From the sequence record MZ726794.1: DNA of 39,917 bases; one strand, given 5' to 3'. The notes under the pieces are model-generated. The model ran no database searches and was not told where the DNA came from. It saw only the letters and a program-made list of their open reading frames with translations. Source of the stretch: Escherichia phage vB_EcoA_ASO2B. The number at the start of each line of letters is the position of its first letter. Position 1 is the stretch's first letter. Shown here in pieces: positions 21,008-22,454 of this stretch. The position numbers were made by a program, and so were the translations under genes.

Positions 21008-21031
21008 ACTAAACTATCACTATAGGGAGAC
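21008..21031 (+). promoter_or_regulatory. Phage RNAP promoter (phi10-like), full consensus ctaaactatcactatagggaga
   Basis: Only copy with the full GGGAGA start; located upstream of the capsid gene as T7 phi10. Confidence 0.85.
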
Positions 21032-21132: not shown

Positions 21133-22176
21133 ATGGCAAACGTTCCGGGTCAGAAAATTGGTACAGACCAAGGTAAAGGCAAATCCAGTTCAGACGCTCT
21201 GGCGTTGTTCCTGAAGGTATTTGCTGGTGAAGTCCTGACCGCATTCACTCGCCGCTCTGTAACTGCTGACAAGCATATTGTCCGTACCATTCAGAACGGT
21301 AAGTCTGCTCAGTTCCCGGTCATGGGTCGCACCTCTGGTGTGTATCTGGCTCCGGGTGAGCGACTGTCCGATAAGCGTAAAGGTATCAAACATACCGAGA
21401 AAGTGATTACCATTGATGGTCTGCTGACTGCCGATGTGATGATTTTCGACATTGAAGACGCGATGAACCACTACGACGTGGCTGGCGAGTATTCCAACCA
21501 GTTGGGCGAAGCTCTGGCTATCGCTGCTGATGGTGCGGTGCTGGCTGAAATGGCGATCCTGTGTAACCTCCCGGCTGCATCCAACGAGAACATCGCGGGT
21601 CTTGGCACTGCGTCAGTACTGGAAGTTGGCAAGAAAGCTGACCTCAACACCCCGGCTAAACTGGGTGAAGCAATCATTGGTCAACTGACCATTGCTCGTG
21701 CGAAGCTGACCTCCAACTACGTTCCTGCTGGCGACCGTTACTTCTACACCACGCCGGACAACTACTCTGCAATCCTAGCGGCTCTGATGCCGAACGCTGC
21801 TAACTATGCTGCGCTGATTGACCCAGAGACTGGTAACATCCGTAACGTGATGGGCTTCGTTGTTGTTGAAGTTCCGCATCTGGTACAGGGTGGCGCTGGT
21901 GAGACTCGTGGTGACGATGGCATCTCTATCGCTTCCGGTCAGAAACACGCATTCCCGGCAACTGCTACTGGCGACGTTAAAGTTGCTATGGACAACGTTG
22001 TTGGTCTGTTCTCTCACCGTTCTGCTGTGGGTACTGTGAAGCTGCGTGACTTGGCGCTGGAACGTGACCGTGACGTAGATGCTCAGGGCGACCTGATTGT
22101 TGGTAAATACGCTATGGGTCACGGTGGTCTGCGTCCTGAAGCGGCTGGCGCACTGGTTTTCAGCCCAGCGGCGTAA
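21133..22176 (+). CDS. Major capsid protein (gene 10A)
   Basis: SD aggaga; LALFLKVFAGEVLTAF, KHTEKVITIDGLLTADV, ILAALMPNAANYAALIDPE, AMGHGGLRPEAAG match T7 gp10A. Confidence 0.97.
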   Translation: MANVPGQKIGTDQGKGKSSSDALALFLKVFAGEVLTAFTRRSVTADKHIVRTIQNGKSAQFPVMGRTSGVYLAPGERLSDKRKGIKHTEKVITIDGLLTADVMIFDIEDAMNHYDVAGEYSNQLGEALAIAADGAVLAEMAILCNLPAASNENIAGLGTASVLEVGKKADLNTPAKLGEAIIGQLTIARAKLTSNYVPAGDRYFYTTPDNYSAILAALMPNAANYAALIDPETGNIRNVMGFVVVEVPHLVQGGAGETRGDDGISIASGQKHAFPATATGDVKVAMDNVVGLFSHRSAVGTVKLRDLALERDRDVDAQGDLIVGKYAMGHGGLRPEAAGALVFSPAA

Positions 22177-22307
22177 GCACCTTTAGCCAACCTAACGTCG
22201 CTACAGTAGCGGCTGCACCTGAAGAGGAGACTCTAACTCCTCAACAGAAAGCTGCGCGTACTCGTGCTGCGAACAGGGCCGCTAAACTGGCTGAGTCCAA
22301 CAACTAA
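22155..22307 (+). other. Programmed -1 frameshift site (G GTT TTC, 22155-22161) and 48-codon extension giving minor capsid protein 10B
   Basis: Slippery heptamer at the same place as T7; the -1 frame reads QPSGVSTFSQPNVATVAAAPEEETLTPQQKAARTRAANRAAKLAESNN to TAA 22305-22307, resembling the T7 10B extension. Confidence 0.7.
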
Positions 22308-22310
22308 TTG

Positions 22311-22350
22311 AAACCCCTTGGGTGCCTTCGGGTGCTTGAGGGGTTTTTTG
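22311..22350 (+). terminator. Late terminator (Tphi-like)
   Basis: aaaccccttgggtgccttcgggtgcttgaggggttttttg: GC-rich hairpin with G-U pairs plus a T6 tract, near-identical architecture to T7 Tphi. Confidence 0.85.
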
Positions 22351-22364
22351 CTTAAGGAGGTACT

Positions 22365-22454
22365 ATGGTCCTTATTTACACAGGGTTAGCACTATTCGTC
22401 TTATTCTGGGCGTACCTGCTGTCCAGCTCACCGTCTAGCGCCTATGACCGTTAA
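22365..22454 (+). CDS. Possible small hydrophobic peptide (29 aa)
   Basis: ATG 22365 with SD aaggagg; MVLIYTGLALFVLFWAYLLSSSPSSAYDR; its stop codon lies inside the SD of gene 11. Confidence 0.3.
   Translation: MVLIYTGLALFVLFWAYLLSSSPSSAYDR

Follow-up and report, generated by a model that had tools for sequence, protein, structure and literature searches.

Escherichia phage vB_EcoA_ASO2B (ASO2B), a T7-like podophage (genus Kayfunavirus, K1F-like Studiervirinae), very probably makes use of a programmed -1 ribosomal frameshift like that of T7 gene 10, by which a minor capsid protein 10B, predicted here for ASO2B from the sequence, would be produced together with the major capsid protein 10A. 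We give this reading a probability of about 0.93. Frameshifting in gene 10 is already known down to the level of the genus, in T7 as well as in K1F, and the signal described here is an ordinary recoding signal, so the value of the finding lies in the annotation and the biology is not new. The window, that is, the whole stretch of DNA that was analyzed, comprises the 39,917 nucleotides of sequence record MZ726794.1, and the features of the gene 10 region are collected in Table 1, together with the modules that occupy the equivalent place in relatives.

Table 1. Features around the 3' end of gene 10 of ASO2B (positions in the window) and extension modules of related loci (L numbers designate loci of the comparison set).
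Feature	Position or carrier	Strand	Description or evidence
Gene 10A, major capsid protein	21133-22176	+	Zero-frame ORF, 347 aa, 36.3 kDa
Overlap with both frames open, 11 codons	22140-22176	+	-1-frame TGA at 22137-22139, open from 22140
Candidate shift heptamer G_GTT_TTC (zero-frame Val-Phe)	22155-22161	+	Sequence; homologous position in T7, phiA1122, MmP1 and K1F
Predicted 10B-specific extension, -1 frame, 48 codons plus TAA	22161-22307	+	Translation, homology with the T7 tail, selection
Tphi-like intrinsic terminator	22310-22349	+	17-bp hairpin 22310-22347, CCCC/GGGG stem base, U tract
Unannotated hydrophobic ORF of 29 aa, MVLIYTGLALFVLFWAYLLSSSPSSAYDR	22365-22454	+	Strong AAGGAGG ribosome-binding site; gap between terminator and gene 11
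Module of ~92 aa	Many Kayfunaviruses, including L011		phrog_7473, E 7e-37, unknown function
Big_2 Ig-like module	L030; also behind the T3-type A_AAG site in relatives without the U run
475-aa -1 extension behind GGTTTTT	L045, L061 (IMG/VR 3300034349_000001, 3300034127_000003)

The ORF that hosts the shift site encodes a T7-type major capsid protein gp10A, as shown by its match to Pfam PF21703 (Gp10A-like, E 2.8e-105, residues 60-342 covered) and by the gene order, which in ASO2B, as in T7, is gene 9, gene 10, terminator, gene 11 and gene 12. The protein has already been deposited with exactly this sequence as UAW58421.1 (Escherichia phage vB_EcoA_ASO2B major capsid protein), and gene 10 with its 3' flank is 99.8% identical to the corresponding region of Escherichia phage Mt1B1_P3. 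Upstream of the gene, positions 21008-21030 of the plus strand read actaaactatcactatagggaga, the end of which corresponds by eye to the CACTATAGGGAGA core of the late promoters of the T7 group; this element is presumably the phi10 promoter for the mRNA of 10A and 10B.

The 3' end of 10A reads CTG GTT TTC AGC CCA GCG GCG TAA, with the stop codon at 22174-22176. The original prediction had placed a slippery heptamer G GTT TTC five codons before this stop, and it is indeed found there, with TTC as the fifth codon before the TAA and in a phase that fits a tandem -1 slip, GTT and TTC being codons of the zero frame. After such a slip the first codon read would be CAG at 22161, and 48 sense codons in all (QPSGVSTFSQPNVATVAAAPEEETLTPQQKAARTRAANRAAKLAESNN) would follow up to a TAA at 22305-22307, which is exactly the length that had been anticipated for the extension; all the coordinates and counts put forward beforehand proved to be correct. 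Since both frames are open only in the overlap, the shift has to be confined to positions 22140-22176, and the +1 frame shuts 3 codons beyond the 10A stop. The predicted 10B would have 343 + 48 = 391 aa and 40.9 kDa, in comparison with the 36.3 kDa of 10A, with its junction at F343/Q344 and its last tail nucleotide at 22304, and digestion with trypsin would be predicted to release the junction peptide PEAAGALVFQPSGVSTFSQPNVATVAAAPEEETLTPQQK. This 391-aa protein was not found in a collection of 15 billion proteins.

Taken within a single genome, the evidence for a frameshift signal is only suggestive. The heptamer GGTTTTC is not enriched in the window, where 3 copies were observed on both strands versus 3.9 expected, and -1-frame runs of 48 or more open codons have a background of around 2.6% of the -1-frame positions in long plus-strand ORFs. 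Because of these two background levels, the significance of the signal has to come from the comparison of relatives. For this, 87 loci were compared, which included T7, T3, phiA1122, MmP1, K1F, SH4 and the Kayfunavirus-type GenBank records Mt1B1_P3, P7124 and PRF-SP2 plus 78 relatives from IMG/VR with 10A identities from 99% to 43%.

The 48-aa tail was compared by means of a distant-mode DNA search and pairwise BLASTP, as a tblastn search of the phage collection with the tail alone as query yielded no matches, probably as a consequence of low-complexity masking. The resemblance to the T7 10B tail that had been claimed was confirmed by BLASTP, with an E value of 2e-11 and 23/36 identical residues, and the tail also matches phrog_12582 (E 6.5e-10), a family that was assembled in PHROGs from tails of this kind and is annotated 'head protein'. 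Selection was assayed on a 61-nt core common to ASO2B, T7, phiA1122, MmP1 and two metagenomic relatives, in the form of an ungapped block of 13 distinct sequences that were aligned as nucleotides without protein guidance. The variable columns of this core are distributed as 7/6/18 over positions 1/2/3 of the -1-frame codons (binomial p = 0.004). When ASO2B was compared with L013, L036, MmP1, phiA1122 and T7, the -1 frame gave pS values of 0.61-0.85, with synonymous sites near saturation, versus pN values of only 0.11-0.20, in such a way that the extension is conserved at the amino-acid level, and the refuting condition set beforehand, an extension without such conservation, does not apply. The -1 frame of the core is free of stops and shows dN/dS values around 0.1-0.2 where these can be calculated, whereas the other two frames contain stops and show values of 1.2-7. 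Such a pattern is that of a translated peptide under constraint, with purifying selection acting in the -1 frame only.

The conservation of the heptamer itself points in the same direction. Among the 34 loci that have GGTTTTC at the homologous Val-Phe, all except one (33/34) stay open in the -1 frame for 45 codons or more beyond the shift point; at the loci where the same Val-Phe is encoded by GGTCTTC or GGTATTC, the -1 runs are short and of variable length, and there is no conserved extension. Long -1 ORFs detected in the non-slippery loci L056, L044 and L040 were rejected as extensions, because gene 11 occupies that frame. Across a diverse set of frameshifter representatives, Val is encoded by GTT in 15/15 and Phe by TTC in 14 and by TTT in one, while the fraction of identical codons is only 0.23-0.52 for the neighboring Ala/Gly codons. 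By contrast, 15 non-frameshifters use GTA, GTC, GTG or GTT for the same Val, or have Ile (ATC) instead. Because GTT is present in 15/15 frameshifters versus the mixed Val codons of the others, and because the extension is found at 33/34 of the GGTTTTC loci, the heptamer is under selection at the nucleotide level beyond what the amino acids need. Purifying selection in the -1 frame and the retention of the heptamer where the extension exists both support the earlier proposal that the frameshift is maintained in this lineage.

In the mechanism that we propose, most ribosomes on the late capsid mRNA would pass G_GUU_UUC and stop at the end of the zero frame to give the 347-aa 10A, and a minority would slip one base back, with the P-site tRNA-Val moving from GUU to GGU and the A-site tRNA-Phe from UUC to UUU. 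The shifted ribosomes would then read the CAG at 22161 and 47 codons more, to terminate at 22305-22307, just ahead of the terminator. The product, residues 1-343 of 10A followed by a 48-residue tail rich in Ala, Glu, Lys and Arg, would co-assemble in the capsid as a minor subunit, with its tail exposed. Against this mechanism stands the fact that the heptamer is not a canonical X_XXY_YYZ. Its X_XX is G_GU, and neither the homopolymeric XXX/YYY triplets of canonical cassettes nor their stable structure at a distance of 5-9 nt on the 3' side is present.

Could 10B be made by a shift at another place of the overlap, for example by slippage of the P-site tRNA-Pro on C_CCA (22164-22167)? The overlap contains AGC CCA, the site of T3 is C_CCA_AAG, and a shift at any position of the overlap would lead to a nearly identical product. 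However, the CCA of ASO2B is followed by GCG, which does not allow re-pairing after a -1 shift, and free variation is seen at the Ser-Pro codons of the frameshifters (AGC CCA, ACA GCG, AAA GTG, AAC GAG), whereas GTT TTC is invariant, so that we regard a shift on C_CCA as very unlikely. Even less room is left for the notion that the -1 ORF has a start codon to itself and is a separate small gene, or that it is reached through transcriptional slippage on the T run, which we consider practically negligible. The T7-type tail does exist in PHROGs as a stand-alone 'head protein' family, and some records of relatives have hypothetical proteins annotated separately over the longer extensions, but the -1 frame of ASO2B offers no ATG, GTG or TTG from which an independent ORF of at least 30 aa could start, no ORF of this length was called in the frame, and the frame opens within 10A, always abutting the heptamer. 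As for transcriptional slippage, the runs that support slippage of the polymerase are far longer than four T, and only four T are present at the site.

It is also highly improbable that the signal and the tail are inherited relics, unused or negligibly used in ASO2B. 10B is dispensable in T7, and its loss may be tolerated in relatives, as two of the loci carry disrupted extensions. In L012, a close relative (IMG/VR 2974615076_000001, 39,300 bp), a 1-nt deletion that breaks the frame immediately behind the 10A stop (TAAGC to TAGC) puts an intact tail in the +1 frame, in such a way that a -1 shift would yield only 15 aa, and in L016 a frame-disrupted long module continues into a downstream small ORF. 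Both cases are either sequencing errors or natural variants without 10B, and the deletion in L012, unless it is a sequencing error, suggests that 10B can be dispensable. A relic would nevertheless be at odds with the purifying selection seen in the -1 frame among lineages that are close to saturation at synonymous sites, and also with the intact heptamer and tail of ASO2B, which are nearly identical to those of K1F, a phage whose 10B fusions reach the virion. The programmed frameshift at G_GTT_TTC, with 10B as its product, is therefore the reading that we retain.

We also searched for elements that could stimulate this programmed frameshift. Neither a hairpin nor a pseudoknot was found locally on the 3' side, as the 60 nt located 3' of the site are no more stable than their shuffled versions (z scores of +0.43 in ASO2B, -0.54 in T7 and -1.19 in SH4), no family was matched in a search of Rfam, and there is no raised conservation of synonymous sites around the heptamer beyond the heptamer itself. 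A hairpin enclosing the site (226-nt fold) was rejected as a stimulator, because a synonymous GCT-to-GCA change in its 5' arm would break it in K1F. With the 3' folds, the K1F change, the Rfam search and the synonymous sites all against it, a local stimulatory RNA was rejected, and by eye no clear Shine-Dalgarno-like element was detected upstream of the site, in positions 22100-22154. As no local stimulator was found, we infer that a simple tandem slip of modest efficiency is the best-supported model, and the frameshift efficiency is not predictable, since there is neither local structure, nor an Rfam match, nor extended synonymous constraint from which it could be derived.

The only conserved element 3' of the shift site is the terminator, the hairpin of which begins 3 nt past the 10B stop. 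Its fold has a calculated energy of -25.2 kcal/mol (z -5.4), with 0/200 shuffles equally stable, and the terminator was also detected by a consensus scan. It is near-identical to T7 Tphi and is conserved behind every extension type. Its CCCC is located 155 nt 3' of the shift site (182 nt in T7) and is conserved, as termination alone would require, with CCC rather than CCCC in two frameshifter relatives, L013 and L028. For T7 gene 10, PMC5009743 refers to an unexplained long-range effect of the terminator CCCC, over 200 nt past the site on the 3' side, and a contribution of the terminator to frameshifting in ASO2B is possible.

The 48-aa tail is not the only sequence that follows the heptamer among the relatives. 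In L007, L011, L015-L025, L072, L076 and L077 it is replaced by an unrelated beta-rich module of 91-94 aa after GGTTTTC, which has the heptamer unchanged on one side and a near-identical terminator on the other. This ~92-aa module (SH4-type) gave no Pfam match, and the possibility that it is a divergent Big_2 domain was rejected, as hhalign assigned it a probability of 0.5% and Pfam did not match; a weak similarity was found with PDB 2lyi_A (E 0.025). The last 120 residues of 10A are 91-98% identical to those of ASO2B among the Kayfunaviruses that carry either the 48-aa tail or the ~92-aa module. The case of L011, where these residues are 98% identical and yet the ~92-aa module is present instead of the 48-aa tail, suggests a recent exchange of the cassette.

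A different arrangement was observed in a T3-type set without the U run (L033, L042, L047, L051, L054, L055, L060, L064 and L067; T3 itself is L087, 1363-1692). In all of them A_AAG_G is located two codons 3' of the Val-Phe position, as in the C_CCA_AAG of T3, and a -1 ORF of around 90 codons follows; the extensions can be aligned with that of L030, which is Big_2 Ig-like. The family has in A_AAG_G another shift site, of the T3 type. The largest extension, that of L045 and L061, has at its beginning a Big_2 domain (Pfam E 1.5e-10) followed by a large unassigned region, and if it is made by frameshifting it would represent an unusually large capsid decoration.

In every case the terminator is found 3-15 nt after the module, and the distance from the site to the terminator ranges from 153 to 1442 nt among the relatives. 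It may be, although we hold it as a tentative and rather doubtful idea, that the heptamer and the Tphi terminator constitute a fixed socket, in which recombination exchanges one capsid-decoration module for another, unrelated one. Were this true, the natural variants would allow a test of the distal stimulation of T7 gene 10 frameshifting by the terminator CCCC, because no local stimulator is conserved and the distance varies over the range given above.

The gap between the terminator and gene 11 is also variable. The 29-aa ORF that it contains in ASO2B had no PHROG match; L012, L013 and L016 carry related ORFs (…LFVSFW…LLTGPCSPYDR) at this place, none is present in K1F and the majority of the others, and in L026 the place is taken by a Cys-rich ORF of 143 aa. 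Judging from these sequences, the gap between Tphi and gene 11 looks like an insertion hotspot.

With respect to the annotation, 10B appears as a joined -1 frameshift CDS in the records of T7, T3, phiA1122 and MmP1. No joined 10B CDS is present in those of Mt1B1_P3, K1F, SH4, P7124 and PRF-SP2, and in two of these five the ORF of 10A length is named 'minor capsid protein'. This label, with 10B in the accompanying note, was found on the 10A-length ORF of the PRF-SP, STP-SP and CRW-SP series of Salmonella phages and of P7124, and elsewhere the same ORF is labeled 'scaffold protein' or 'capsid and scaffold protein'. Several records of the SH4 type have a separately annotated 'hypothetical protein' beneath the match to the extension.

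We compared the ASO2B signal with recoding systems already described. With the dnaX-type and IS-element cassettes of E. coli it shares a tandem -1 slip, bacterial translation and two products per gene, but these cassettes have a heptamer of the A_AAA_AAG type, an upstream Shine-Dalgarno-like element and a hairpin or pseudoknot 5-9 nt 3' of it, whereas in ASO2B no local 3' structure was detected and no clear Shine-Dalgarno-like motif was seen by eye upstream. Gene 10B of T3 is also expressed through a -1 frameshift near the C-terminus of 10A that gives a minor capsid protein. The T3 site, C_CCA_AAG, is a canonical X_XXY_YYZ placed two codons further 3' than that of ASO2B, its extension, around 85-90 aa long, finds its counterpart in alignments among the Big_2 Ig-like extensions and not in the short charged tail of ASO2B, and its terminator is located around 160 nt past the 10B stop. 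The Ig-like nature of T3 10B is known from the literature (Fraser et al. 2006, as given in a citing paper).

In T7, the -1 frameshift between 10A and 10B was reported by Condron, Atkins and Gesteland in 1991, as summarized in PMC5009743 and PMC1635266, the latter giving a frequency of around 10%; its site G_GU_UUC is treated in PMC5009743 as an intermediate form of X_XXY_YYZ that is decoded by bacterial ribosomes. T7 and ASO2B belong here to the same gene family, with G_GUU_UUC at the homologous Val-Phe, homologous tails that share an LTPxQ.AARTRAAN core, and a Tphi terminator with a CCCC/GGGG stem directly after them. They differ in several points: the tail has 48 aa in ASO2B, which lacks the ASVTSTE segment, versus 56 in T7; counted back from the 10A stop, TTC is the fifth codon in ASO2B and the fourth in T7; and a GGGGG run around 17 nt 3' of the T7 site is absent from ASO2B. 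We infer that an efficiency like that of T7 and incorporation into the virion would also apply to ASO2B.

K1F, the type species of Kayfunavirus, shares with ASO2B both the heptamer and the terminator hairpin, and its tail is identical in 47/48 residues, with one A to D change. A few synonymous and flanking differences separate both phages, and K1F has no counterpart of the 29-aa ORF that ASO2B carries in the gap before gene 11. The -1 frameshift in K1F gene10 was described as adding 44 triplets, and a g10b::gfp fusion in the -1 frame produced a stable fluorescent phage (PMC6277420), the same locus being used later for the display of adhesins on a subset of the capsid subunits (PMC13370021). 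The F343/Q344 junction and the end of the tail at 22304 mark in ASO2B the natural display site that has already been used by those engineering K1F.
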